A stretch of 26,040 nucleotides of DNA from Candidatus Limnocylindrales bacterium (GTDB lineage: Bacteria; Chloroflexota; Limnocylindria; Limnocylindrales; CSP1-4), in contig JBEKVD010000041.1 of NCBI GenBank assembly GCA_049514315.1, positions 1 through 26,040 of the forward strand. Direction: 5' to 3'. The number at the start of each line of letters is the position of its first letter. Position 1 is the stretch's first letter. Of the stretch, positions 6,830 through 25,890 are shown one piece after another. A model generated the notes under the pieces. The model had not been told where the DNA came from. It searched no databases and saw only the letters and a list, made by a program, of their open reading frames with translations. The translations under genes and the position numbers were made by a program.

Positions 6830-7866
6830 GCGCGCGCCGGGGTGATTGATCGACGCGTCGCCTCCTTGCGGGCCGCGCCGGGGCCGCCGGTCGTGCCGAG
6901 GGAGCGGCCGTGGGACTCGGCCTCGGCCGCACCATCAGCCACCGCAGCCTGGGCCATCTCAAGGAGACCGGTCGTTTCGAGAACCCGTCGAAGTCGAGCG
7001 CGGTGCACCTCCTCGAGCGGCAGCAGAGGAAGCCTGACGACATCCGAGATCAGGCCGAGCATCGCCAGGGCCGACTTCACCGGCACCGGGTTCGGCCCGC
7101 CCACGAAGTTGGCCTTCATGAGCGGCAACCAGCGGTCGTGGATCCGCCTCGCGGCCTCGGAGTCGCCGGCGAACCAGGCCGCGCACATGGCCACCATTTC
7201 GCCGGGGATCTCGTTGGCGCAGGTGCAGATGACGCCATCGCCGCCCATGGCCAGCATCGGCAGCGTCCAGACGTCGTCACCCGCCAGGACGGAGAAGTGT
7301 GGCGGCCTCTCCCGAAGGATGGTCGAGATCTGGTCCATGTTGGCCGAGGCTTCCTTGACTGCGAGGATGCGCGGGTGCTCCGCCAGGCGCAGGAGCGTCG
7401 ACGGCTCGATGTTCACGCCCGTTCTGCTGGGTACGTTGTAGACGACGATCGGGAGGGCGCCGTCGTCGGCAATGGCCCGGTAGTGAGCCTCGATCATGCG
7501 CTGGTCGGGCTTGTTGTAGTAGGGAACGACGCACATGGCGGCGTCGGCGCCGAGGATCGCCGCCCGCCGCGTGGCCCGGATCGTGGCCGAGGTGTCGTTG
7601 GAGCCGGTGTTGGCAACCACCTTGATGCGGCTCCTGGAGGGCCGCTCGGAGGCGATCTCCACGGCCGTGGAGAAGAGCCACTCGCGCTCGTCGGGGCTGA
7701 GCGTGGGGCTCTCGCCGGTGGTGGCCGCGAGCACGAGGCCATCGACGGCAGAGTCGATCTGGCGGCGTACGAGCGCTCGGAAGGCGAACTCATCAACCGC
7801 GCCCCCGGGCATGAACGGCGTCACGAGGGCCGTGAAGGTTCCGCGGAACTGGCGGTTCAGTGGCAT
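6826..7866 (-). CDS. dapA: 4-hydroxy-tetrahydrodipicolinate synthase
   Basis: DapA motifs are TALVTPF, ATTGESPTL, YNVPSRTG and AVKEAS (Schiff-base Lys). GGAG lies 8 nt upstream of the ATG. The protein carries an extra ~45-aa Ala/Gly-rich C-terminal tail. Confidence 0.9.
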   Translation of the reverse strand: MPLNRQFRGTFTALVTPFMPGGAVDEFAFRALVRRQIDSAVDGLVLAATTGESPTLSPDEREWLFSTAVEIASERPSRSRIKVVANTGSNDTSATIRATRRAAILGADAAMCVVPYYNKPDQRMIEAHYRAIADDGALPIVVYNVPSRTGVNIEPSTLLRLAEHPRILAVKEASANMDQISTILRERPPHFSVLAGDDVWTLPMLAMGGDGVICTCANEIPGEMVAMCAAWFAGDSEAARRIHDRWLPLMKANFVGGPNPVPVKSALAMLGLISDVVRLPLLPLEEVHRARLRRVLETTGLLEMAQAAVADGAAEAESHGRSLGTTGGPGAARKEATRRSITPARA

Positions 7867-7931
7867 CTGAGTTGCTCCTTGAGGTTCAGGTCAATGTCGA
7901 TGCGGGCCGGCCGTCGAACTGCGGCCCGGGC

Positions 7932-8753
7932 TCAGGCATGGAGGGCTCCCGAGCCGGAGCTTGCAGCCGCGTGGCGGCCGTTCGATCCGGGCTCGGGCGG
8001 CTGTTTGGCGACGATCGAGTCGACGACCTCGTCGAATCCGTGGAGGCCGGGAGCTCGCGGCTCGGCCACCAGCCACTCGGCGGCGGTAATGGCGCCGGCG
8101 GCGTACCCCGATCGGTCGCGAGCGGTCAGGCGCATCTCCAGGCTTTCGCCCGGGGCATCGAAGCCCACAAGATGCATGCCCGGCGCGCTGCCGGCTCGAA
8201 TGACGGCGACGTCCAGCTCCTCGGGAGCGGGCGCGCCGTAGGCCACCGGGCTGGCAACGCGTGTCTTGCGGGGGTGAGCGGCGATCACCCGCCGCGACAG
8301 CTCGATGGCGGTCCCGGACGGTCGGTCGGCCTTGCTGCGGCGATGCCATTCGAGCAGGTACGGGTCGTAGTCCGCGAACGAGCCGAAGAGTCGCGTTGCG
8401 TCCTCGACGAGCCGCGCGAAGAGAGTGGCGCCGAGACTGAAGTTGGCCGAAGCCACGGCCGTTGCGTCACGCTCGATCAGCATCGCTTCGACCGCGGCGC
8501 GATCGCCGGCCCAGTTGGTCGTGCCGATCACGAAGTAGCGGACGCCACCCTGGAGAGCGGCACTGACGTTCGCCAGGACTGCGTCGCCGACGCTGAAATC
8601 GAAGAGGAGATCGGCCTCGTGAAACCGGGCAGGGGCGTGGCCATGGGGCGTGTTGGGCATGCCGAGGACTGCCCCTGGGGGTGTGCCACGTTCGGCGAGC
8701 GCGGCCGCGACCGCCCTGCCCATGCCTCCGTCTCCGGCGACAATGCTGCGCAT
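7932..8753 (-). CDS. dapB: 4-hydroxy-tetrahydrodipicolinate reductase
   Basis: It has an N-terminal Rossmann loop (AGDGGMGRAV) and EWHRRSKADRPSGTA, the DapB E-x-HH-x-K-x-D-x-PSGTA motif. I chose ATG 8753 because it is 8 nt downstream of GGAGG; the track start at 8762 is a GTG inside that SD. Confidence 0.85.
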   Translation of the reverse strand: MRSIVAGDGGMGRAVAAALAERGTPPGAVLGMPNTPHGHAPARFHEADLLFDFSVGDAVLANVSAALQGGVRYFVIGTTNWAGDRAAVEAMLIERDATAVASANFSLGATLFARLVEDATRLFGSFADYDPYLLEWHRRSKADRPSGTAIELSRRVIAAHPRKTRVASPVAYGAPAPEELDVAVIRAGSAPGMHLVGFDAPGESLEMRLTARDRSGYAAGAITAAEWLVAEPRAPGLHGFDEVVDSIVAKQPPEPGSNGRHAAASSGSGALHA

Positions 8754-8780
8754 TCCGACCACCTCCGTGAACGTTGCTGA

Positions 8781-8818
8781 GAAACAAAAAGCCGCGGCAC
8801 CTTCTTCGGTGTCGCGGC
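8781..8818 (-). terminator. intrinsic terminator inside the dapB 5' leader (attenuator or riboswitch expression platform)
   Basis: On the - strand: GCCGCGACACC-GAAGAA-GGTGCCGCGGC (11-bp stem with one mismatch) followed by TTTTTGTTTC. It ends about 14 nt before the dapB SD. The flanking gene on the other side is divergent, so the element lies between the promoter and dapB. Confidence 0.6.
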
Positions 8819-9207
8819 CCTCCGGAGCCTCCTGCCCCTCGGCTCCGCGGTTCGTTCCAAACGCCGCCGAGCCCTAGGGCCGTGCCTCCCGGCAGGGCCG
8901 CACGCGCTTCGACTTCGGCTTGGCGAGCAGTTGGACGAACATGGTCCGCGGATTATGCATTGATACGGAGATATGCGCAAGTACTGCGCAGGATCATTCA
9001 GACTGTGTAGTTTCTATGCACATCGCCATTCCAAGTTCGAGCGCAGCGGCACGGAGCCCTGGACCGATCGAAATGGGGCTGGCCGAGCGCGTGTTCTGCC
9101 CGCGGCGCGCGACAGCGGCGGGCGGAACGGCGCAACGGGGCGCGATGGCGGATACTGCCCGGGCCTGGTGCCGGCATGGGTACTCGAGGCGATGGGAGTT
9201 GATTCCC

Positions 9208-9654
9208 TTGGAGAAGGTATACGAGCTCTACATCCGCACGACCCCGGAGCGCCTCTGGGAGGCGATCACCGACGCCGAGATCAGGGCCAGGTTCCACTTC
9301 GGGAACCGGGTCAGCTCGGATTGGACGCCCGGCTCGCATTTCGAGATCACGAACCCGAAGGCCCCCGGACCCCTGGTCGAGGGCGAGAACCTCGAGGTCG
9401 AACCCCCGCGCCGCCTTGTCCAAACGATGGTGGCGCTCTGGAGCGACGAGGTGAAGAGGGAGGGCGCAACGCGGGTCACCTGGGAGATCGAGCCGATCGG
9501 CGACTCCTGCCATCTGACCCTCACCCACGATGGGCTTCGGGACGGCGCGAACGAGGAGCTGTACGGCGGCTGGCCGATGATCCTGTCGGGCCTCAAGACG
9601 TGGCTTGAAACGGGCCGGTCGCTGACCACGCCCGGATCGCTGCTGTACGGCTGA
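9208..9654 (+). CDS. SRPBCC / AHSA1-like (activator of Hsp90 ATPase homolog) family protein
   Basis: The C-terminal ~148 aa of ORF 8920..9654 looks like the SRPBCC/AHSA1 fold family (YELYIRTTPERLWEAITD...RVTWEIEPIGDSCHLTLTH...GGWPMILSGLKTWLE). TTG 9208 has GGGAG 9 nt upstream. An alternative ATG start is at 9145. Confidence 0.7.
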   Translation: MEKVYELYIRTTPERLWEAITDAEIRARFHFGNRVSSDWTPGSHFEITNPKAPGPLVEGENLEVEPPRRLVQTMVALWSDEVKREGATRVTWEIEPIGDSCHLTLTHDGLRDGANEELYGGWPMILSGLKTWLETGRSLTTPGSLLYG

Positions 9655-9949
9655 AGATCACGTGCGACCGCGGCCCTGACCGGACGTTCGAGGGCGGCGC
9701 CCGGGGCGTTGCTTCCGAAGAGCCCGGGCATAGCGGCGAGGTCCGCGCCTCTGTCGCGCGGCCGGCCCCAGCCTCCCGCCTGCCACTGGCGCCGTTCGGC
9801 CCTTCGAACTTGGGGCGCGCCGGCCGGGACGGCGGCTGACCGTTGAACGCCCGACAACAACTCGATGCCATGATTCCGCCGCTGTTCGGCTCAGACTTAG
9901 CGCGGCTCCAGCCGCGAATGCACCAGCAGGTTGTACGGAAAGGCGACAC

Positions 9950-10723
9950 ATGGATGACCACACGGCTCCTGCCGTCAACAAGCCCATCTGGATCGACCTG
10001 GCCAGCTCCGATCCGGCGGCCTCGCGCGACTTCTACGCGGAAGTCCTTGGCTGGCAGGTCGAGGTGAACCCCGATCCGCAGTACGGCGGCTACGCCCTGG
10101 CAAGGATCGGCGGCAAGGACGTGGCTGGAATCGGCCCGAAGATGATGCCCGAGGCGCCGACGGCCTGGTCGGTCTACATCGGCACGCCCGACGCCGCCGA
10201 CCTGGCGAAGAAGGTGCAGGCCGCGGGCGGCAGGGTCATCGCCCCGCCGATGCAGGTGGGCGACCAGGGCCGCATGGCGGTCTTCCAGGATCCCTCGGGC
10301 GCCTTCATCGGGGCCTGGCAGCCGATGGCGATGAGCGGGTTCGTCACGGGCACGCCGGGCACGTACCAGTTTGCGCAGTTGAACTCGCGCGGTTTCGAGA
10401 AGGCGCTCGCGTTCTACCCGGCGGTCTTCGGCTGGGTGCCCAGGACGATCCCGATGGGCGAGGGCCAGCCGCCGTACACGCTGTTCCTGGTCGGAGACCA
10501 GGGCATCGCGGGCGGCATGGAGATGAACCCGATGGTACCGGCCGAGGTCCCGAGTTACTGGATGGTCTACTTCTCGGTCGAAGACGTGGACGCCACCTTC
10601 CGCAGGGCGATCGAGGCCGGAGCCCGGGAGATGGTCGCCCCGCAGGATTTTCCGGGTGGCCGTTCCGCGATCCTCGGCGACCCGCAGGGCGCGGTCTTCG
10701 CACTCCAGATGGTGAGGCGATAG
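9950..10723 (+). CDS. VOC (glyoxalase/bleomycin-resistance/dioxygenase) family protein, two tandem domains
   Basis: 257 aa with two VOC-like halves (IWIDLASSDPAASRDFYAEVLGW and FAQLNSRGFEKALAFYPAVFGW). GGAAAGG lies upstream of the ATG. Confidence 0.8.
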   Translation: MDDHTAPAVNKPIWIDLASSDPAASRDFYAEVLGWQVEVNPDPQYGGYALARIGGKDVAGIGPKMMPEAPTAWSVYIGTPDAADLAKKVQAAGGRVIAPPMQVGDQGRMAVFQDPSGAFIGAWQPMAMSGFVTGTPGTYQFAQLNSRGFEKALAFYPAVFGWVPRTIPMGEGQPPYTLFLVGDQGIAGGMEMNPMVPAEVPSYWMVYFSVEDVDATFRRAIEAGAREMVAPQDFPGGRSAILGDPQGAVFALQMVRR

Positions 10724-10746
10724 CGGATCGGCTCGACAGCCGCCTG

Positions 10747-10809
10747 CCGAGGCCGGCGCCCGCGTCGGCCTCGGTGCCCAGGGTTCGTGGGCGGGCCAGA
10801 GCCCGCCCA
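10747..10809 (+). terminator. two GC-rich hairpins between convergent genes (putative terminators without U-tracts)
   Basis: CCGAGGCCG-n10-CGGCCTCGG (10747-10774) and TGGGCGGG-ccagag-CCCGCCCA (10788-10809) lie between the VOC stop and the DUF885 stop. Confidence 0.3.
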
Positions 10810-17369: not shown

Positions 17370-17876
17370 CTACGCGTGACTGCCGTTCAAGGGGTGGTCA
17401 TACACGTAGAAGATGTAGTCCTGAGAGACGGTCCTGACGCCCAGATCGTTCAGCAGCCTGAGCAGTTGCGCCCGATGATCGGTGCCGTGATTGCCGACAT
17501 GGAGCAGCACCTGCCACAGGATGAGGTCCTTGTCCTCCCCCTCCGCGAACGGCTTCTCAAAGAGCATGTCGTCCCGTAGCTCCGCAAGATAGTCGCGCAT
17601 GCGTTGCTCAACGGCGTCCCAGTGGCTACGAATGCTGTTCCGATCGACAAAGGTGGCAGGATCGAGCGAGCCTGGGATCTCGACGCCTCGCAATCCGCTG
17701 AACCACGTGTCATCAACGCTCATGAGATGCACGACCTGGTTTCGCACCGATCCAGCGGAGTAGCTCGCGTCCCGCGTGAACTGTTCGTCGGAGAGCGACG
17801 TGATGTGAGCATCCCAGATGTTGCGGTTCTCACTGAAGTGGTAGTCGTAGAAATGACGGAAGGCTTCGGCGTTCAT
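17370..17876 (-). CDS. DinB-family (DinB_2/DUF664-like) metal-binding four-helix-bundle protein
   Basis: 168 aa with SVRNQVVHLMSVDDTWF and LLHVGNHGTDHRAQLLRLL, the His triad pattern of DinB-like proteins. Confidence 0.8.
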   Translation of the reverse strand: MNAEAFRHFYDYHFSENRNIWDAHITSLSDEQFTRDASYSAGSVRNQVVHLMSVDDTWFSGLRGVEIPGSLDPATFVDRNSIRSHWDAVEQRMRDYLAELRDDMLFEKPFAEGEDKDLILWQVLLHVGNHGTDHRAQLLRLLNDLGVRTVSQDYIFYVYDHPLNGSHA

Positions 17877-18164
17877 GTCGTAACGCGCTCCGAGCGGTGG
17901 AGTTCGACGGATATGACTCGACTAGGAAGGCGTGGAGGGCCTGGTCCCAGGCCGAAGGGTCCCCGCTGATGAGGGCGGAGAGGGGTTGCGGTTCATCTTG
18001 GGCGCCTCGGGTGCGGAATAGTCGCCCACGTATCTCTCTACCGGCCGTCGAAAGCAACAGCATGACCAAATGGTGCCAGCGGGTCCAACCGGAGCCTGTG
18101 TCTGGTGCCGCCGTCGACTCTTCGAGCCCATCGAGAGGTAAGCTCAGCGCAAGAGGGAGACGCA

Positions 18165-18794
18165 GTGATAAACGGAGTCGATGAGCGCGGGGTGCCGCTT
18201 CTGCCTCGGTCGTGGCAATACAGCGACCGGATCATCGCGGCGATAGCTACCGCGGCCCAGATCCACGCCGCCCAGGTGCGCAAGGGCACGACCATCCCGT
18301 ACCTGAGCCATCTCCTTGGCGCATGCTCGATCGCGCTCGACTACGGCGCTAGCGAGGACGAGGCTATCGCCGCCCTCCTCCACGATGCGATCGAAGACGG
18401 CGCGCCGACAGAGGCCGCCCGGGCGACGGTCTGGAGCTTCGGTGACGAGGTCGGCCGCATCGTCGAGGCTTGCACCGACTTGGACAGCCATCCCAGGCCG
18501 CCCTGGCGCGAGCGCAAGGAGTCGTACCTGGCGAGCCTCGCCACCGCGGACCACTCGATCCTGCTGGTCTCGGCGTCGGACAAGCTCCACAGCGCCCGCT
18601 CCGTCGTCCGCGACCTGCGCGCTGCCGGTGAGGATGTCTGGGGACGCTTCAGCCCCCCGAAGGGCGAGATCTTCTGGTACTACCGGGGCCTCGTCCTCGC
18701 CTATCGAGCCAATCCCGCGCACCCGAAGGCGCTCATCGACGAGCTCGACCGGACCGTGACCGAGATGGAGACCCTCGCGGGCATGACGCGCTGA
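18165..18794 (+). CDS. stand-alone RelA/SpoT-type HD-domain protein (small alarmone hydrolase-like)
   Basis: 209 aa with IHAAQVRKGTTIPYLSHLLG, AALLHDAIEDG and SASDKLHSARS, which parallel the SpoT hydrolase motifs H..Q.R, HP, LLHDxxED and ADRLHN. GTG 18165 has AGAGGGAG 5 nt upstream; the track start at 18105 is the alternative. Confidence 0.75.
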   Translation: MINGVDERGVPLLPRSWQYSDRIIAAIATAAQIHAAQVRKGTTIPYLSHLLGACSIALDYGASEDEAIAALLHDAIEDGAPTEAARATVWSFGDEVGRIVEACTDLDSHPRPPWRERKESYLASLATADHSILLVSASDKLHSARSVVRDLRAAGEDVWGRFSPPKGEIFWYYRGLVLAYRANPAHPKALIDELDRTVTEMETLAGMTR

Positions 18795-19207
18795 TGGCTG
18801 CCAGAGCTACGTATCTCTGCGGTGCCTGTGGCAAGGTCGCAGCGACGGTTACGCTCGTGCCACCCGGCCAGCCCGACCCGGCACCGGCGCGCGAGGCCCC
18901 TCGCGTCCGCCCGGCCACGGAAAGACCGTCAGCAATGTCTGGCTGGGCCCGGCTCGCGATCGACGGCGGCCCGGTCGGCCTCACCCGCGGTCCTGTACCG
19001 ATGGAGCAAGTCGTGATCGCTCTTGGAACCGGCGACGCGGCTGCGCTCTTTGAGCTTGAGCAGGAGTACGCACCCTTCTGGTGTCCCAGGTGCCGCGCTT
19101 CCTATTGCCGCGAGCACTACCGCTCGTGGCCGGTCTTTGACGATGGCTTCTTCGACTGCTTCCGTGGCGTCTGCCCGAAGGGCCACGAGCGGATCCTGCA
19201 GGATTGA
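18794..19207 (+). CDS. Cys-rich zinc-ribbon-like protein (137 aa), no family recognised
   Basis: The ATG shares one nt with the HD gene stop (TGATG). It has CGAC near the N-terminus, then CPRCRASYCREH and CFRGVCPKGH near the C-terminus. Confidence 0.65.
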   Translation: MAARATYLCGACGKVAATVTLVPPGQPDPAPAREAPRVRPATERPSAMSGWARLAIDGGPVGLTRGPVPMEQVVIALGTGDAAALFELEQEYAPFWCPRCRASYCREHYRSWPVFDDGFFDCFRGVCPKGHERILQD

Positions 19208-19893
19208 GGAAGGTCCTGCGAACTCATCGGGCGGAGCGAGGCGATGGGCTTGGAATAGCTGCAGGGTGGGTCTTTCGAGCTTCGAACGGAAAGCAACACC
19301 GTCCCCATGGTCTCGGCGCGAGGGGTGAACCCGGCACGATTGCCCGATCGTGCGCAGTGGAGCCAATTCCTCAGGTCTCGGCCATTGGGCTCGGTCTCTG
19401 CCGCTGGCAGTCGTGGCAGAGAACTCGGCATCGCATCAGGGATGCCCAAAGGCGACAGTTGCGCTAAGTCGGTTTGGGCGGCGGCCGGCCCGGGCCGCTC
19501 TCGGCGAACCTCGTCACGATCCAGCGACAGGTGTCAACGTCTGGCGGATCAGCGAGCCACTCGCTCTTCTCACGTCTCGGTGAAATACTCGGCGTATACA
19601 GTTCGGGTTCCGGTTCATTCGTGCGGTAGGCTGTATAGCAGCGTCGCGGCGAATCTCCGGCCGGAGAGGGAAGCTGGCTATGAGCGCTCCGGGACCGGGC
19701 GGACTTGCTGGTTCATACCGGCAACCGCAAGCGGGCGCAACGGAGGCGACCTCCCCGGAGTCGAGCAGGGCGCCTCACGTGCGAGAACCTGTGGCGGCAG
19801 GAGCGCCGCGATGTCCGACGGTGCCAGTTCAGGTGAAGAGCGTCTCGCAACCCATCGCCGATGCCGGGCGACGCGAGGCGGAGGGAGCTAGTT

Positions 19894-20118
19894 CGATGGC
19901 GGAGAGCTGGAAGACCGTCCGCGTCTTCATCAGCAGCACCTTCCGCGACATGCACGTACAAAGCGATCACCTGGCGCGACAAACTTGTGGAGCATTCGTG
20001 GGTCTCCCTCCGAGATATGGACCGCCGCAGCTATACCCGGGCGATCCGCGAGCAGCTCGACGCCTTCGCCGCCCGGGCCGGCGACGAGACGTTGCCGCGA
20101 ACAGCGCCGGGACCGTAA
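19894..20118 (+). pseudogene. micro-gene with a DUF4062-like N-terminal signature whose coding frame switches (frameshifted relic or recoding)
   Basis: GGAGGGAG lies 8 nt upstream of ATG 19894. MAESWKTVRVFISSTFRDMH is encoded with 100% GC3. After about 19955 the high-GC3 frame changes to the one ending at TAA 20116-20118, while the original frame drops to about 50% GC3 and runs to TGA 20145-20147. Confidence 0.45.
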
Positions 20119-20136
20119 CTGACGAAGGGGTGAGCC

Positions 20137-22608
20137 GTGGTCGATGACGCGACGAGCCAGCTACGCGCCTGGCTGGCGGCCCAGGTCGCCTGCTATGCCG
20201 AGGACTACCCGAGATACCAGCGCTACGCCGAGGTCTTGAGCGCCGTGCTGCGCGGCGCGGCAGACCGATTGGCCCCTGAGGCCATCGTCCAGGCGCGCCC
20301 CAAGTCGATCGCCAGTTTCGCCGAGAAGGCGCTGCGCAAGCGGGCGACGAGGACCGATCCCTGCCGGATGTTCACCGACCTGTGCGGTGCGCGGGTGATT
20401 GGCCGAACGCGCTCCGAGGTCGAGACGATGAGCTGCTTCGTCGTCGAGAACTTCGCGATCGACTGGGAGAACAGCGTCGACGCGAGCCAACGCCTTCGGC
20501 CGACGGAGTTCGGCTACCGCTCGGTGCACTACATCGTCACGCTGCGGCCCGACATCGATTACCGCGTCGACGTTCCCAACGCCGTGCTTGGCCTCAAGGC
20601 CGAGATCCAGCTGCGCACAGTGGCCGAGCATGCGTACAGCGACTTCGGCCACGACCTCACCTACAAGGGCGCATTTGCGCTGCCGCTCGCCTGGGAGCGT
20701 GAGCTTGCCGAGGCGGCGGCCAGCCTTGAGGAGGTCGACGGGACCTTCTCGCGGGTCGAGAACGGGCTGCGAGAATACGCGACCAATTACGGCCGATACC
20801 TGGGCGAGGAGAGGGCGCGTGCGGAGATCGACGACCTGCTGATCGTGCTCGAACACGTACCGGCGGACAGCGGGCTGGCCGACCGCATTGCACGGCTCGG
20901 AATCGCCCTGGCCGACTGGGCCTTGGTCGTCAGGGTGCTCTCGCCGTTCGTCGCCGCCGACGCCGCCCGAACCCCCCTCCCGGTGCTGCGCGACATGGGC
21001 ACGGCGCTCTGCCGGCTTTACCGTGACCAGCCGCGCGGCGAGGACTACCGCCGAGGTCAGCATTACCTGGAGCTGGCCAGCGCATCGGACGACATCGATG
21101 CCATCTGCACGTTCGCCGGCACGTGGAAGGGGGCCGACGACGCTCGGGCGCGCGACCTCTACCACCGAGCGTTCGAGCTCGATCCGACCAACCCCTATCC
21201 GCTCGGCAACTACCTCGAGCTCGAACTCGACCACGACCCGGCCGTCCTCAGGTCGATGGGGCCCGAGCTGCGCGGCGCGATCGAGCGCTGCGAGCACCAT
21301 ATCTCCGCCGGGATCAATCTGCCGTGGGCCCAGTTCGACCTCGGCAGATTCCACCTGCTCCTCGGCGAACCCTATGAAGCTCTGGCCGCTTACGCGGAGG
21401 CGATCACAACGAGCACGGCCGCCTTCATGATCGATACCTCGCTCGCCTCGCTGGAGCGGCTGGCAAGGGCTCTCGGTGACCAGCCCGGCTTCGACTGGGC
21501 TCGCCGGCTTCTCCTGCTGGGCTTGGCGTCTCGGTTCGGCTCAGAGGTCGCGCTCGAGCGGGTCAGGCAGCTTGCCTCGGCCGGCGTCGCTCCGCTAACC
21601 CCACCCGTCGTGATAGTGGCCGGAGGGACCGACCCGCGGCTGGAGGCGCAGCTACAGGGTTACGCCGACCTTCTCGCCTTCGGATTCGCGGACTTCAGCG
21701 GGACGATCCTCTCCGGTGGCACGACCGAGGGCATCAGCGGGATAGTGGGCGACATCGGCTCCGCGTCGGGCGGCCGCATTCGAACGGTCGGCTATCTTCC
21801 CGAACTGGTCCCGGCCGACGCGACCCGCGACTCGGACTACAGCGAGCTGCGGAAGACGCCAGGCCACGGGTTCAGCCCCCTCGAGCCGCTCCAGAATTGG
21901 GTGGATCTCGTGGCTTCCGGTGTCCCGGCGACAGGAGTGCGGGTAGTGGGGGTCAACGGTGGCCGTATATCCGCGCTCGAGTACCGCATCGCGCTCGCGA
22001 TGGGCTCGACCGTCGGCCTCGTCGCCGACAGCGGCCGCGAGGCCGGCCGCCTGCTCGGCGACGAGCGGTGGACGTCCTCACACCTGATTCGCCTGCCGGC
22101 TGATCCCGACACGATTCGCGTCTTCGTGACCCCCGCACCCGCGCCCCTGCCCGAGCCGACGCGCTCGACGCTCGGGCGCTTCATCCACGAGGAGAGCCGG
22201 CGGGAGCGAGTGCCACGTCCCGACATCGACCCCGCTCTCGCCGACTGGGATCAGCTGCCGGATGACTTCCGCAACTCCAATCTCCAGAAGGCCGATCACA
22301 TCGGCGAGAAGCTGCGGCGAATCGGGTGCATCGCCGCCCCGGAAGGCGCCCCCGGCGAGCGGGCGACCTTCACGCCTGAGGACATCGAGGCGATGGCCGA
22401 GCTCGAGCACGGCCGCTGGACAGCGGAACGGCTCCTGGCCGGCTGGACGTGGGGCGAGAAGCGCGACCCTGCGCGTCGGACGAGCCCGTATCTCGTCGCC
22501 TGGAGGGAGTTGCCGGAGGCGATAAGGGAGATCGACCGCCAGGCTGTGCGGCAGATCCCGGACGTTCTGGCGACAGTCGGCCTGTGCGTGCGATGGGCGA
22601 CGCCATGA
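20137..22608 (+). CDS. RelA/SpoT-synthetase (SAS/toxSAS-like) - TPR-like - SLOG/LOG-like - RyR-domain fusion protein (823 aa)
   Basis: Synthetase motifs are RPKSIASFAEK (20296-20328), DLCGARVIG (20377-20403), FGYRSVHY (20509-20532), EIQLRT (20602-20619) and HDLTYK (20650-20667). The helical/TPR-like region includes YHRAFELDPTNPYPLGNYLELE (21160-21225). Gly-rich Rossmann loops are VVIVAGGTD (21607-21633), LSGGTTEGISGIVG (21709-21750) and VNGGRISALEY...VADSGREAGRLL (21952-22056). RyR-like motifs are WDQLPDDFRNSNLQKADHIGEKL (22246-22314) and ELEHGRWTAERLLAGWTWGEKRD...REIDRQAVRQIP (22399-22560). The GTG start has GAAGGGG upstream. Confidence 0.85.
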   Translation: MVDDATSQLRAWLAAQVACYAEDYPRYQRYAEVLSAVLRGAADRLAPEAIVQARPKSIASFAEKALRKRATRTDPCRMFTDLCGARVIGRTRSEVETMSCFVVENFAIDWENSVDASQRLRPTEFGYRSVHYIVTLRPDIDYRVDVPNAVLGLKAEIQLRTVAEHAYSDFGHDLTYKGAFALPLAWERELAEAAASLEEVDGTFSRVENGLREYATNYGRYLGEERARAEIDDLLIVLEHVPADSGLADRIARLGIALADWALVVRVLSPFVAADAARTPLPVLRDMGTALCRLYRDQPRGEDYRRGQHYLELASASDDIDAICTFAGTWKGADDARARDLYHRAFELDPTNPYPLGNYLELELDHDPAVLRSMGPELRGAIERCEHHISAGINLPWAQFDLGRFHLLLGEPYEALAAYAEAITTSTAAFMIDTSLASLERLARALGDQPGFDWARRLLLLGLASRFGSEVALERVRQLASAGVAPLTPPVVIVAGGTDPRLEAQLQGYADLLAFGFADFSGTILSGGTTEGISGIVGDIGSASGGRIRTVGYLPELVPADATRDSDYSELRKTPGHGFSPLEPLQNWVDLVASGVPATGVRVVGVNGGRISALEYRIALAMGSTVGLVADSGREAGRLLGDERWTSSHLIRLPADPDTIRVFVTPAPAPLPEPTRSTLGRFIHEESRRERVPRPDIDPALADWDQLPDDFRNSNLQKADHIGEKLRRIGCIAAPEGAPGERATFTPEDIEAMAELEHGRWTAERLLAGWTWGEKRDPARRTSPYLVAWRELPEAIREIDRQAVRQIPDVLATVGLCVRWATP

Positions 22609-22651
22609 GGGCCGGGTGAACTGGAGCCGCCGATAGATCGCGCGGGCAGAC

Positions 22652-22885
22652 GTGGACCGCCTGGACGAGATCATCCAAGCCCGCGGGTGGACGAACGAAA
22701 AGGGAGGGACTGGGCTCTCCGATAGGCTGCTTGAAGAGCTGCGCGCGACCGACGCCACGCTCGCGATTCTCGATGTCGACTATGCCGACTGGGAAGTCCT
22801 ATACCGGATGCGTCTCCAGATCGAGCGCGATCTGCTGGTAGGCTGTTCAGTGGGTCAGGCCTGGCAACCAGGAGGTGAGACATGA
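22652..22885 (+). CDS. small hypothetical protein (77 aa)
   Basis: It starts with a GTG 44 nt after the fusion-gene stop, and its stop overlaps the cupin ATG (ATGA). The sequence looks helical (DRLDEIIQARGW...LLEELRATDATLAILDVDYADWEVLYRMRLQIERDLL). GC3 is moderate (~68%) and the SD is weak. Confidence 0.4.
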   Translation: MDRLDEIIQARGWTNEKGGTGLSDRLLEELRATDATLAILDVDYADWEVLYRMRLQIERDLLVGCSVGQAWQPGGET

Positions 22886-23259
22886 CGTTCAACGAGGACA
22901 TCGTCAGGCGAGCGAAGGCCAATTCGTACTTCCGCGAGGTCCTTGCAACCGGACCACACAGTCAGGTCGTGGTCATGAGCATTCCTCCGGGCGGTGACAT
23001 CGGCGAGGAAGTCCACGATGACGTGGATCAGGTGCTCGTCTTCGTCCAGGGCAGAGGAGAGGCCATCCTGAATGGCCAAGAGAGCGCGGTGGGCCCGGAT
23101 CGGCTGGTCCACGTGCCCTCAGGAACTCGCCACAACTTCGTGAACACCGGTGCCATTGACCTTCGGCTGTACACGATCTATGCCCCGCCCGAGCACGAGC
23201 CGGGCACAATCCATAAGACCAAAGCCGAAGCCGACGCGGCTCACGCAGCCGAGGATTGA
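22882..23259 (+). CDS. cupin-domain protein
   Basis: 125 aa with the cupin_2 pattern PPGGDIGEEVHDDVDQVLVFVQG...VHVPSGTRHNFVNTG. AGGAGG lies upstream of the ATG. Confidence 0.8.
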   Translation: MTFNEDIVRRAKANSYFREVLATGPHSQVVVMSIPPGGDIGEEVHDDVDQVLVFVQGRGEAILNGQESAVGPDRLVHVPSGTRHNFVNTGAIDLRLYTIYAPPEHEPGTIHKTKAEADAAHAAED

Positions 23260-23261
23260 AC

Positions 23262-23432
23262 TCCGTCGCCGCCGACCTGGCGGCGAAACCGAGCGCTTGA
23301 CCTGCCGCCGCAAGACCCGAGCTGGTGGCGAAGAACCAGGATCTCAATCTGTGTGGCATCGTCGGCTCGATGGTTGGGTGCGACAAAGGGGAGAAGCCGA
23401 CGAAGCATCAAGTACAGGAGCGAAGCAGGCAT
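23262..23432 (-). pseudogene. N-terminal relic of a DDE (rve-type, IS481/IS3-like) transposase, frameshifted and truncated
   Basis: MPASLLYLMLRRLLPFV...DATQIEILVLRHQL is followed, in a different frame, by VLRRQVKRSVSPPGRR. Together these resemble the common actinobacterial transposase N-terminus EILVLRHQLAVLRRQV.RP.FS..DR. The relic runs into the 3' end of the cupin gene and has no catalytic domain. Confidence 0.55.
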
Positions 23433-24544: not shown

Positions 24545-24913
24545 TTAGGCCACGGGCTCGATATCTATGATCGAGGCCTCGGTGACGCCCTTGAGGAGCA
24601 CGAGACTCCAGTCGGCGTGCGGATCAGTGTCCATGAACTGCATGGACTCCCGCATCACCTTCGCATACTCGGTGGTCTCGTCCTTCTGCATCGCGGCCAG
24701 CTTGTCCATGTCGGCGTAGCTGCTGAGGCGTTCGAGGATCCGAAACTCCCCTGCGGTCTTCTCCGAAGTGAACACCGCGACGTACGTGCCCAGATACTCC
24801 GTGCCCTCCGGGTAGCTGCGAGCGATCCTCTCCTCGTTCGCTGCTAGCCACCGCTGGAAGGCTTCTGCCTGGCCTACGCGCACGCTGAACCCGCTCTCTT
24901 GAATGAAGCGCAT
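24545..24913 (-). CDS. hypothetical protein (122 aa), possibly a small alpha+beta (NIPSNAP/ABM-like) fold
   Basis: GGAGG lies 6 nt upstream of the ATG. The composition is globular and non-biased (MRFIQESGFSVRVGQAEAFQRWLAANEERIARSYPEG...). Confidence 0.7.
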   Translation of the reverse strand: MRFIQESGFSVRVGQAEAFQRWLAANEERIARSYPEGTEYLGTYVAVFTSEKTAGEFRILERLSSYADMDKLAAMQKDETTEYAKVMRESMQFMDTDPHADWSLVLLKGVTEASIIDIEPVA

Positions 24914-25245
24914 GGGAGACCTCCACAGGCTGGATACGGGTCGGTCTCGCCAGTGGCTCGGCGCGGTCCCGGCGGCCAGTGCATGGACCGCGCGTCATGG
25001 CTCCCCGTGAGGCTTGATTGTCCCACCGGCGTCCATGGCCCCCGACGAAGCGAGTCGACTGGCCGGACTACGCCGGGATCGTCAGCGGCCAGAGGGAGCG
25101 GGAGTTGAGGAAACACCAGCGGAGCGACTCACCTGACGTCCGCTGTTTGGTTCACCGGAGGATCATGGGCAAGTCCGTCCGGCGTGCTAACTGTCAGACG
25201 GCAGGCTTCGACAGTAAGGTGCTCAATCTGAGCTTGATTCGGGGT

Positions 25246-25293
25246 TGGCTGGCGAGGAAGGATTCGAACCTTCAGTTTCCTGATCCAGAGTCA
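25246..25293 (-). other. 3' fragment of a tRNA-Gln(CUG)-like gene (anticodon loop to CCA), a probable att-site or gene remnant
   Basis: The - strand reads UGA-CUCUGGA-UCAGG-AAACU-GAAGG-UUCGAAU-CCUUC-CUCGCCA-G-CCA. That is a canonical T-arm, a 7-nt acceptor 3' strand, discriminator G, encoded CCA and a C-U-CUG-G-A anticodon loop. No D-arm or matching 5' acceptor strand follows. Confidence 0.6.
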
Positions 25294-25890
25294 ATCAATG
25301 CTCACCGGCGTGCTACTCCTCGTGGGGTGCCAACCGAAAGGCGTCCAGTTAGGGGATGGAAACAACCTCAGACCGTGGCCCCTAACGCGACCGCTCAAGA
25401 TGGCCCGGCACCTGGCCGGGATCGTGGGTCACCAGCAGAGCGGGCGGGCAGGCGCGACAAGGGCGCCAGCTCGTCTGCCGCTGGCGTTCGGGCACCGCTC
25501 GGCCCCACCGGTCGAGATCGGGGGTTGGAAGCCGACAAGAGCGATGGCCCCCAGCACTCATCTAGGGGCCATCGATGCTCGTCGGGCCGGCGGGGCTACT
25601 TGCCCTTCTTGCCCTTCTTGTTCTTCTTCTTGTTGGCCAGTCTAGCCTCCTAACGGCGGGTCGACCATCACAGTGTAGGCCCGATAGATTCGGTCTCCTG
25701 CGACCGAACCAGGGCCGACGACAACCGACCGCGCGACGTGGTCTCTATGAAGAGAGCCCCGCGTGTCAAGGTCTTCGCCTGGAGGCGCCCGGGTGGGCGA
25801 GCAAGATGCGCTTCTCATGTCTCTATGGCCTCCTGGAGGGGAGGACTCGGTCGGGTTGGAGACAGAGGTGGCCCAAGTCATTGAGGGTCG

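Follow-up and report, generated by a model that had tools for sequence, protein, structure and literature searches.

The closest described counterparts of the system presented here are the toxic small alarmone synthetases (toxSAS) FaRel, FaRel2, PhRel, PhRel2, and CapRel, which are small, essentially single-domain RelA/SpoT-type synthetases (Jimmy et al. 2020, PMC7229694), and the synthetases RelP and RelQ (PDB IDs 5ded, 5f2v, 6ewz, and 6fgk), homotetramers of about 210 amino acids (aa) that have neither sensor domains nor a Nudix partner. We analyzed a 26,040-nucleotide (nt) stretch of contig JBEKVD010000041.1 from a Candidatus Limnocylindrales bacterium, referred to as the window, which encodes an 823-aa RelA/SpoT-type fusion protein. 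The initial annotation had grouped this gene with an HD hydrolase gene, a coupled zinc-ribbon gene, a non-coding gap, a "micro-gene", and a small open reading frame (ORF) coupled to a cupin gene, and had proposed one split alarmone synthetase/hydrolase cassette comparable to toxSAS. Judged by its sequence, the fusion protein is an intact member of a widespread, uncharacterised family. The conserved partner of this family is a Nudix hydrolase, and no gene of the window is a conserved partner. The region is probably a mosaic of remnants from at least three unrelated modules in a decaying accessory island and not a co-evolved cassette.

The fusion protein and its relation to described systems

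The N-terminal region of the fusion protein contains a RelA/SpoT homologue synthetase domain (RelA_SpoT, Pfam ID PF04607) at residues 54 to 178 (nt 20296-20670; 49.4 bits against a cutoff of 27, E-value 6.6e-13), which is also matched by 20 of 20 aligned homologues. Searches of the PDB by sequence and by fold both give RelQ and RelP as the closest structures, the match covering residues ~40-220, with E-values of only 1e-15 (profile) and 3e-7 (single sequence). The synthetase motifs (R-x-K...S...K; D-x-x-G-x-R; G-Y-R-S-x-H; E-x-Q-x-R-T) align to RelP and are kept across the 87 loci that were compared (80 genome loci and 7 metagenome loci), and 20 aligned sequences show no variation at R54, K56, S60, K64, D81, G84, R86, G126-Y-R-S, H131, E156, Q158, R160, and T161. 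By prediction, the domain has 3'-pyrophosphokinase activity.

The synthetase domain is followed by a TPR-like helical solenoid at residues ~224-479 (nt 20806-21573), for which the Pfam TPR match is weak. Residues 490 to 654 (nt 21604-22098) match the SLOG/LSDAT_prok domain (Pfam ID PF18171) with 21.6 bits, which is below the gathering cutoff of 25.4 (E-value 1.4e-4), and the same domain is found in 16 of the 20 homologues at an E-value of 1e-3 or better, the best being 2.2e-8. The LSDAT SLOG family was reportedly defined by Burroughs et al. in 2015. The C-terminal region (residues ~675-823) is RyR Repeat12-like and contains a Pfam RyR domain (PF02026) at residues 750 to 817 (nt 22384-22587; 47.3 bits against a cutoff of 27.4, E-value 2.5e-12). 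Its profile matches include an RyR Repeat12 chimera (PDB ID 6uhi, 4.4e-26) and the bacterial RyR domains 3nrt and 6uag, and the Foldseek matches of the C-terminus include RyR3 Repeat12 structures with ATP, ADP, or AMP-PCP bound.

The AlphaFold2 model of the fusion protein (mean pLDDT 86.9, pTM 0.77) is composed of an alpha/beta N-terminal domain, the helical solenoid, a Rossmann-like alpha/beta domain at residues ~490-655, where strands and helices alternate as in a Rossmann fold across the SLOG region, and a C-terminal helical/beta module. When the complete 823-aa model was searched with Foldseek, matches were obtained for single domains only (SPY/OGT-like TPR plus Rossmann structures, RelP/RelQ, and RyR Repeat12), with no SLOG-specific match among the top ones.

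The protein search found more than 440 full-length homologues, and the best 120, which were inspected for length and architecture, are nearly all 820-860 aa long, with identical Pfam architecture and 48-82% full-length identity. An alignment of 20 diverse members gives 64% mean column identity. Among 185,579 species genomes (one per species), 371 pattern-matched stretches were retrieved, 279 of which encode a fusion relative, and 80 loci were kept. These 80 genome loci all come from metagenome-assembled genomes (MAGs), which belong to Chloroflexota, Actinomycetota, Gemmatimonadota, Planctomycetota, Bacteroidota, Verrucomicrobiota, Pseudomonadota, and others; 11 are archaeal (Bathyarchaeia, Methanobacterium, Halobacteriota, Thermoplasmatota, and Methanomicrobia) and encode full-length members of the family. 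RelA/SpoT homologues have been reported to be rare in archaea (PMC3153485). In most of the archaeal loci (L020, L027, L028, L030, L039, L043, L049, L053, L054, L062, and L078), a Nudix gene adjoins the fusion gene. The patchy distribution of the family implies horizontal transfer. No full-length member was found in plasmid, phage, and viral-contig collections.

NCBIfam has no model for the fusion family, and PADLOC-DB v2 gives no full-length component match, the similarities to PDC-S33 (fusion residues 32-167, 5.7e-11) and of the relatives' Nudix proteins to PDC-S07 (1.1e-16) being at the domain level only. Full-text literature searches found no description of a RelA/SpoT-TPR-SLOG-RyR architecture.

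Like toxSAS, the fusion family combines a synthetase domain of the RelA/SpoT type, in which the active site is intact, with a tightly adjacent conserved partner in most relatives and with mobile or defence-island contexts, and a hydrolase, which for toxSAS is a small alarmone hydrolase, could likewise be the neutralising agent. The family differs in size and in its additional TPR, SLOG, and RyR domains, and a four-domain protein of 823 aa does not match the small toxSAS of the described modules (PMC7229694). Its partner is a MutT-like Nudix protein, whereas toxSAS are paired with a small antitoxin protein or with an alarmone hydrolase; about a third of the loci lack the Nudix partner despite an intact active site, and the solved structures closest by sequence are RelP and RelQ. 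A bicistronic antitoxin gene as in toxSAS is not present in the window, where the upstream neighbour of the fusion gene is a pseudogene stump.

A second comparison is offered by Thoeris (PMC7272460, PMC11204291), in which SLOG is likewise fused to an enzymatic effector domain, and its ligand-switch logic would match that of the fusion protein; the effector there is the SIR2 NADase of ThsA and the partner a TIR protein, whereas the fusion protein has a RelA/SpoT pyrophosphokinase, a putative SLOG domain of the LSDAT (TRPM-like) family, extra TPR and RyR regions, and a Nudix partner. TIR or DUF4062 genes are nevertheless frequent neighbours of the fusion family, with DUF4062 giants in 23 of the 87 loci and a TIR-TPR gene in locus L097. 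The window itself holds no TIR signal-generator gene, only a 30-codon DUF4062 stump. TRPM2-type channels combine an N-terminal SLOG/MHR1-2 region with a C-terminal Nudix domain, NUDT9-H. The association of an LSDAT-family SLOG with a Nudix in both cases would suggest a shared nucleotide ligand, although the Nudix of the fusion family is a separate MutT-like gene and not an ADP-ribose pyrophosphatase homologue, and the output is an enzyme and not a channel.

The Nudix partner and its relic in the window

Nudix genes were counted with a hidden Markov model (HMM) run on the stop-to-stop ORFs of the 87 loci. A family-specific MutT-like Nudix gene adjoins the fusion gene on the same strand, at a distance of at most 176 bp, in 44 loci, and lies within 3 kb in 6 more; 29 loci have complete flanks and no Nudix gene, and in the remaining 8 the flanks are too truncated to judge. 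The Nudix proteins are MutT/NudI/NudG-like, with the best PDB match being 3grn (6.9e-18). An intact gene of ~155 codons lies directly upstream of the fusion gene in L001, L002, L004, and L096 to L098, the last three being the closest relatives of the window, with fusion aa identities of 81%, 80%, and 72%, respectively. The expectation that the synthetase is accompanied by a nucleotide hydrolase thus holds for the family, where this hydrolase is the Nudix protein, of which the window retains only the last ~40 codons.

The window neighbours of the fusion gene were searched by tblastn in the 80 genome loci and in the metagenome loci L096 to L098. The zinc ribbon, the 77-aa ORF, and the cupin are linked to the fusion gene in none of the 87 loci, and the HD hydrolase in one (L066). 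None of the four was found in the closest relatives, L096 to L098, and tblastn with the DinB protein encoded at the left edge of the region gave no match in the 80 fusion loci. The claim of one co-evolved cassette is not supported by these counts. The DNA homology of the window to L096-L098 begins at 19976-20036, inside the Nudix stump, and ends at 22606, in the fusion stop codon.

Several other genes recur near the fusion gene in other genomes. DUF4062 giants, which are DUF4062-NACHT/AAA-TPR or WD40 STAND-type NTPases, are found also near the fusion genes of the close relatives L001, L003, and L004, and Pfam DUF4062, NACHT, and TPR domains occur together in L061 and L080. WD40/TPR giants are found in 42 loci, a ClpB-like double AAA+ ATPase in 19, and a YbjN-family protein in 14, and L097 has an Hsp70-like gene besides its TIR-TPR gene. 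A divergent trio of genes upstream of the Nudix gene, encoding a ~156-aa protein without a family (o156), the YbjN-family protein, and the ClpB-like double AAA+ ATPase, was observed in L001 to L003, L011, L096, and L097 (for example, L003 4275-7079) and in 14-19 loci overall; among the closest relatives, the divergent o156, YbjN, and AAA+ genes are present in L096 and L097, where the upstream flanks are long enough. In L011, a single ORF (7313-10771) at first suggested a Nudix-fusion protein and was rejected, as its frame differs from that of the fusion match (8001), which points to an out-of-frame read-through or an assembly indel.

An alternative hydrolase was sought in the 29 Nudix-less loci. 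The Pfam census of their 40 immediate neighbours yielded scattered families (TrkA_N, RyR, BtpA, Clp protease, TIR, DUF4062, and others), the sole HD_4 being that of L066. TrkA_N was found in 3 of the 40 neighbours and an RyR domain in 2, and RyR proteins other than the fusion recur nearby. A loss of catalytic residues was not found in the Nudix-less loci, the motifs being kept with and without Nudix.

The ORF at 19680-20147 had been read in the initial annotation as a frame-switching micro-gene that overlaps the start of the fusion gene. The overlap, of 11 nt, is there, but the ORF has no Pfam family and no coding signature. Codon-position GC tells the real genes of the region apart from non-genes: the values at the first, second, and third positions are 0.71/0.50/0.85 for the fusion gene, 0.67/0.51/0.87 for the HD gene, 0.72/0.44/0.69 for the 77-aa ORF, and 0.69/0.41/0.74 for the cupin gene, against 0.72/0.65/0.63 for the "micro-gene" ORF and 0.62/0.70/0.66 for ORF194, another ORF of the gap.

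The first frame of this ORF encodes the peptide KLVEHSWVSLRDMDRRSYTRAIREQLDAFAARAGDE, which matches the C-terminus of the Nudix protein whose gene is intact in L001, L002, and L004, where it directly precedes the fusion gene. The match reaches an E-value of 6.5e-9 by tblastn with the Nudix proteins of L001 to L005 and 5.1e-9 with the Nudix HMM, and the relic is 52% identical to the L096/L097 Nudix proteins over 52 aa (E-value 9e-13). A 33-aa ORF called by the Joint Genome Institute (JGI) at 20017-20118 falls inside it. The second frame encodes the peptide MAESWKTVRVFISSTFRDMH, which matches residues 1-30 of the giants in eight loci (L041, L059, L039, L071, L061, L080, L060, and L013) with tblastn E-values down to 1.5e-9, and an HMM of the N-termini of DUF4062 giants with 36 bits (3e-13). 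From these alignments, the "micro-gene" is best read as two pseudogene stumps, the 5' end of a DUF4062-STAND gene and the 3' end of a Nudix gene. A single deletion may have joined codon ~30 of the former to codon ~115 of the latter. L080 has the order DUF4062-NACHT-TPR, Nudix, fusion on one strand, from which one deletion would yield the arrangement seen in the window.

Neighbouring genes and composition of the region

The ORFs listed in the initial annotation are all present on the + strand where it had placed them, and the domain identities that it gave to the HD hydrolase, the zinc-ribbon protein, and the fusion protein are borne out by Pfam, PDB, and family matches. The 5.4-kb region at 17851-23259 (Table 1) contains four intact genes, encoding the hydrolase, DUF8328, the fusion protein, and the cupin, and four stumps, namely, the 5' end of an integrase gene, the 5' end of the DUF4062-STAND gene, the 3' end of the Nudix gene, and the 3' end of a gene for a protein like P0318.

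Table 1. Features of the region around the fusion gene, in window coordinates
Feature	Position	Strand	Evidence
Relic of the N-terminus of a tyrosine (phage-type) integrase, residues 16-61 of 323	17851..17988	-	tblastn of L091 integrase, 52% identity over 46 aa, E 4e-9
Standalone HD_4 protein of 209 aa, a small alarmone hydrolase of the RelH type	18165..18794	+	Pfam HD_4 7.6e-19; PDB 7qoe 1.6e-44
Cys-rich zinc-ribbon protein, DUF8328, 137 aa	18794..19207	+	76 cluster representatives, PF27007
Non-coding spacer between putative remnant modules A and B	19344..19895		No codon-position GC signature, no homology to either
First 30 codons of an NTPase gene of the DUF4062-STAND type (NACHT/TPR or WD40), 5' relic	19896..19985	+	tblastn, HMM
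3' relic of the family-specific Nudix gene, last ~35-45 codons, without Nudix box	19966..20118	+	tblastn, HMM
Intact 823-aa multidomain RelA/SpoT-type pyrophosphokinase, predicted (fusion)	20137..22608	+	Pfam, >440 full-length homologues, AlphaFold2
3' fragment of the gene for an uncharacterised protein of ~180-230 aa; 77-aa ORF at 22652-22885	22640..22885	+	phmmer, P0318 alignment
Cupin_2 protein, 125 aa	22882..23259	+	Pfam Cupin_2 9.2e-14

The HD ORF extends from 18105 to 18794, with the likely true start at 18165, as in the identical protein P0121 and about 120 homologues. It encodes a standalone small alarmone hydrolase, with 68.4 bits to Pfam HD_4 against a cutoff of 27.2, and in the PDB it matches Leptospira levettii RelH (7qoe), C. 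glutamicum RelH (7qoc, 4e-25), and MESH1 (1.8e-6). Its 4753 homologues are mostly standalone proteins of ~210 aa with 70-82% identity. Compared with the described RelH enzymes (7QOE and 7QOC/7QOD; PMC9293644), the protein aligns over the whole catalytic domain and keeps the H...HD...ED...D metal and catalytic motifs (H34, H49, H73-D74, E77-D78, and D139), whereas it differs in residue 143 (window 18591-18593), where Ser replaces the Asn of the DKLHNARS motif that is present in 13 of 13 aligned relatives, and in its coupled DUF8328 gene and integrase-bearing element. The Ser143 variant was also observed in other samples (P0121). These matches argue for a genuine RelH-type small alarmone hydrolase. 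No RelA_SpoT neighbour was found next to HD homologues in three long contigs, where the contexts varied, and relatives of the HD protein occur on 35 viral contigs.

The zinc-ribbon ORF overlaps the HD stop codon by 1 nt. A Pfam scan of this Cys-rich ORF gave no family above threshold; the 76 cluster representatives of its family nearly all carry a precomputed PF27007 (DUF8328) assignment, and the JGI gene call is PF27007 as well. DUF8328 also occurs alone. In L091 to L093, the order is integrase, DUF8328, HD_4, DUF8328, beside a serine recombinase gene and with no synthetase gene. The DUF8328 genes flank HD_4 on both sides (L091 7001-8592, also L092 and L093). The window is homologous to this HD element over 17924-19343: positions 18128-19343 are 81% identical in DNA to the L091 element, and 17924-18026 are 81% identical to L091 6781-6885 and encode the integrase residues listed in Table 1, the L091 gene having a Pfam Phage_integrase domain. 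The integrase stump suggests that the HD and DUF8328 pair arrived on an integrative element. By these DNA and protein matches, the pair appears to be the remnant of an independent integrative element, kept elsewhere without the fusion gene and beside integrase or recombinase genes, and a tie between these neighbours and the fusion gene is not borne out. The stump forms the left boundary of this remnant element, and the DinB gene (17370-17876) begins right beside it. Two 116-117-aa ORFs that overlap the HD stop codon in L088 and L090 were considered as zinc-ribbon homologues and rejected, since the alignment was forced with large gaps and shared no Cys; as they are unrelated, the downstream partner of the hydrolase family varies.

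At the other end of the region, the proposed coupling of a small ORF to the cupin gene is seen as a 4-nt overlap of the cupin start with the stop codon of the 77-aa ORF, but the 77-aa ORF appears to be a fragment. An exhaustive phmmer search with it showed a conserved family, with 63 representatives of 50-800 aa; most of these are longer than the ORF, and the match falls toward their C-terminus. Residues 151-227 of one of them, P0318 (229 aa), are 68% identical to window 22640-22870 (E-value 1e-27), and the N-terminal 150 residues of P0318 were found nowhere in the window. The homology to P0318 begins 32 nt after the fusion stop codon. Aligned in this way, the ORF is most plausibly the C-terminal third of a gene that was cut at its 5' end. 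Neither the ORF nor P0318 has a Pfam family, and P0318 has an N-terminal hydrophobic segment. The cupin gene differs from the fusion gene in codon usage (GC3 of 0.74 against 0.85), and no cupin homologue was found in the 87 fusion loci. The HD protein, the zinc ribbon, the 77-aa ORF, and the cupin gave no match in a PADLOC-DB v2 scan.

The non-coding gap of the initial annotation holds up, 19208-19896 having neither a coding signature by codon-position GC nor homology; tblastn of every ORF of the 80 loci against the spacer at 19344-19895 gave no match. No consensus promoters or terminators were found in 17800-23400, a result that is uninformative, as the promoter scan was a sigma-70 consensus scan only.

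The accessory and mobile setting is likewise supported, by the lower GC content, the integrase relic, a tRNA-Gln repeat, and the IS110 at the window edge. The GC content of the window is ~0.70 and falls to 0.63-0.68 from ~17 kb to the right end, the lower-GC accessory DNA starting at ~17 kb. ARAGORN found no tRNA in the window; a sub-threshold tRNA fragment at 25249-25307 (-) is a copy of the 3' half of a tRNA-Gln gene 3.6 kb to the right, outside the window. It lies within a direct repeat of ~135 bp with 86-93% identity between window ~25160-25293 (L081 15024-15157) and L081 18642-18803, beyond the window. The repeat comprises the 3' half of tRNA-Gln(CTG) and ~90 bp of downstream flank, with the intact tRNA 3618 bp rightward, and the IS110 transposase gene, which starts at ~25891, lies between both copies. 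The repeat pair has the look of an att duplication from a small element that integrated here. A third copy that would bound a larger island was not found in the window. This right flank is compatible with an island in decay at a tRNA-Gln site.

A c-di-GMP-II-GAG riboswitch aptamer (RF03169) was also observed at 24930-25014 (-), with 67.8 bits against a gathering score of 40 (E-value 9e-12). The aptamer precedes, by 16 nt, a 122-aa ORF at 24545-24913 (-), which has a good coding signature (GC3 of 0.84) and no Pfam or NCBIfam family.

Competing explanations and meaning for the family

The most probable reading of the region is a mosaic of three modules. Module A (17851-19343) would be the remnant of an integrative element with a truncated tyrosine integrase, the RelH-type hydrolase, and DUF8328. 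Module B (19896-22608) would be what remains of a Nudix and fusion system, of which only the synthetase fusion stayed intact and whose core elsewhere, a MutT-like Nudix gene right beside the gene for a fusion protein of 820-850 aa, is often located amid DUF4062/TIR-STAND, WD40, and AAA+/YbjN genes, and module C (22640-23259) would consist of a 5'-truncated gene and the cupin gene. The fusion protein's N-terminal domain would most likely use ATP to pyrophosphorylate the 3'-OH of a purine nucleotide, or possibly that of a tRNA end; the products described for the superfamily are (p)ppGpp, (p)ppApp, and a pyrophosphorylated tRNA end (PMC7229694). We infer a regulatory logic in which the SLOG and RyR-like modules, as putative nucleotide binders, would together with the TPR scaffold hold the enzyme off until a ligand or partner is sensed, with the TPR solenoid serving as scaffold or partner-binding surface, and in which the Nudix protein would degrade the product or the activating nucleotide and so set the threshold. 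Since many loci do without the Nudix gene, auto-inhibition of the enzyme is more probable than constitutive toxicity, and it can thus persist as an orphan. The 29 loci with complete flanks that have neither Nudix nor HD, yet keep the catalytic residues, likewise indicate that no antidote is obligatory. The nearby alarmone hydrolase could hydrolyse the product of the fusion protein, yet would have arrived independently.

Several points weigh against the mosaic. The hydrolase and synthetase genes lie on the same strand, only 1.3 kb apart, and a translationally coupled HD_4 gene next to the Nudix-less family member of L066 means that their proximity in the window could be selected. The identification of the relics relies on short alignments of 30-50 aa, each backed by several independent subjects and by position. 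The relatives are all MAG or metagenome contigs, and some of the missing neighbours could be assembly artefacts. The first two of these points lead to an alternative that we consider unlikely, in which the HD hydrolase is a type IV-like antidote that degrades the nucleotide of the fusion protein and has taken the place of the lost Nudix protein through non-orthologous displacement. The two would then function as a split synthetase/hydrolase module in spite of their assembly from separate pieces. By its homology, the HD protein is a genuine hydrolase of the RelH type, small alarmone hydrolases, phage-borne ones included, neutralised every toxSAS tested (PMC7229694), and the 1.3-kb arrangement is found in all three source contigs that extend far enough upstream to show both genes (L081 to L083). 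In L066, the HD_4 gene overlaps the fusion start by 11 nt, in the place usually taken by the Nudix gene, which is absent there; its product is 44% identical to the window HD protein (Pfam 5.9e-25), and about 0.1 such adjacencies would be expected by chance in 87 loci, roughly estimated at about one hydrolase per ~3000 genes. This single case is suggestive, not decisive, for a hydrolase-synthetase relation. On the other side, the two genes of the window lie in separately derived blocks, set apart by a non-coding stretch of 0.55 kb together with two pseudogene stumps, an HD neighbour is present in only 1 of the 87 other loci, while the window itself was chosen for the adjacency and is not independent evidence, the 29 complete-flank loci keep an intact catalytic site with neither Nudix nor HD, and the window hydrolase carries Ser in place of the conserved Asn. 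The hydrolase and the synthetase of the window may still act together.

Two further explanations concern the fusion gene itself. It might encode a regulated, housekeeping-type alarmone synthetase, with the Nudix protein as an ordinary turnover enzyme and an incidental island location, as could be argued from the non-toxic RelP and RelQ being the closest solved relatives, from the high conservation of the family across phyla, and from Nudix enzymes that degrade (p)ppGpp (PMC3153485; PMC9293644). The horizontal transfer implied by the patchy occurrence over many bacterial phyla and 11 archaeal MAGs, the neighbourhoods rich in DUF4062/TIR-STAND, WD40, Hsp70-like, and AAA+/YbjN genes, and the position of the window copy in an island of lower GC content that contains integrase, IS110, and tRNA-att remnants make this explanation improbable in our view. 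It is very unlikely that the fusion gene is a non-functional leftover heading to decay. Both the Nudix and the DUF4062-STAND partners have been destroyed, the downstream gene is truncated 32 nt past the fusion stop codon, and no promoter-like site was found upstream by the sigma-70 consensus scan, the only one made; however, the 2.5-kb ORF is uninterrupted, every family-invariant residue that was checked is kept, the codon-position GC is normal, a GAAGGGG ribosome-binding motif is located 7 nt 5' of the GTG start, and the identical fusion protein is found on 7 JGI contigs, the 5 shown coming from 5 different samples. The contig is carried by the JGI samples 3300038428, 3300037993, 3300039412, 3300038420, and 3300043295.

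Under the preferred reading, the five-gene "cassette" would consist of three unrelated remnants and four stumps, unfit as a model toxin-antitoxin locus. The interest lies in the family, whose members are large, conserved RelA/SpoT proteins that have a Nudix partner, also conserved, and two additional modules predicted to bind nucleotides. By analogy, the many DUF4062/TIR-STAND genes nearby suggest a Thoeris-like combination of a signal generator with a SLOG-gated effector. Such an effector would either produce an alarmone-type nucleotide or attach pyrophosphate to a target, compared with the destruction of NAD+ by ThsA. We tentatively raise the possibility that the pair of Nudix and RelA/SpoT-TPR-SLOG-RyR proteins is an immune or signalling module spread horizontally among bacteria and archaea, with a SLOG/RyR-gated pyrophosphokinase as effector and the Nudix protein as off-switch, the latter displaced by a small alarmone hydrolase in L066 and possibly in the window. 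If the fusion protein is indeed a ligand-gated, alarmone-type effector, the family would join toxic alarmone synthetases with SLOG-sensed nucleotide immunity and would give a testable case of displacement between Nudix and HD hydrolases.

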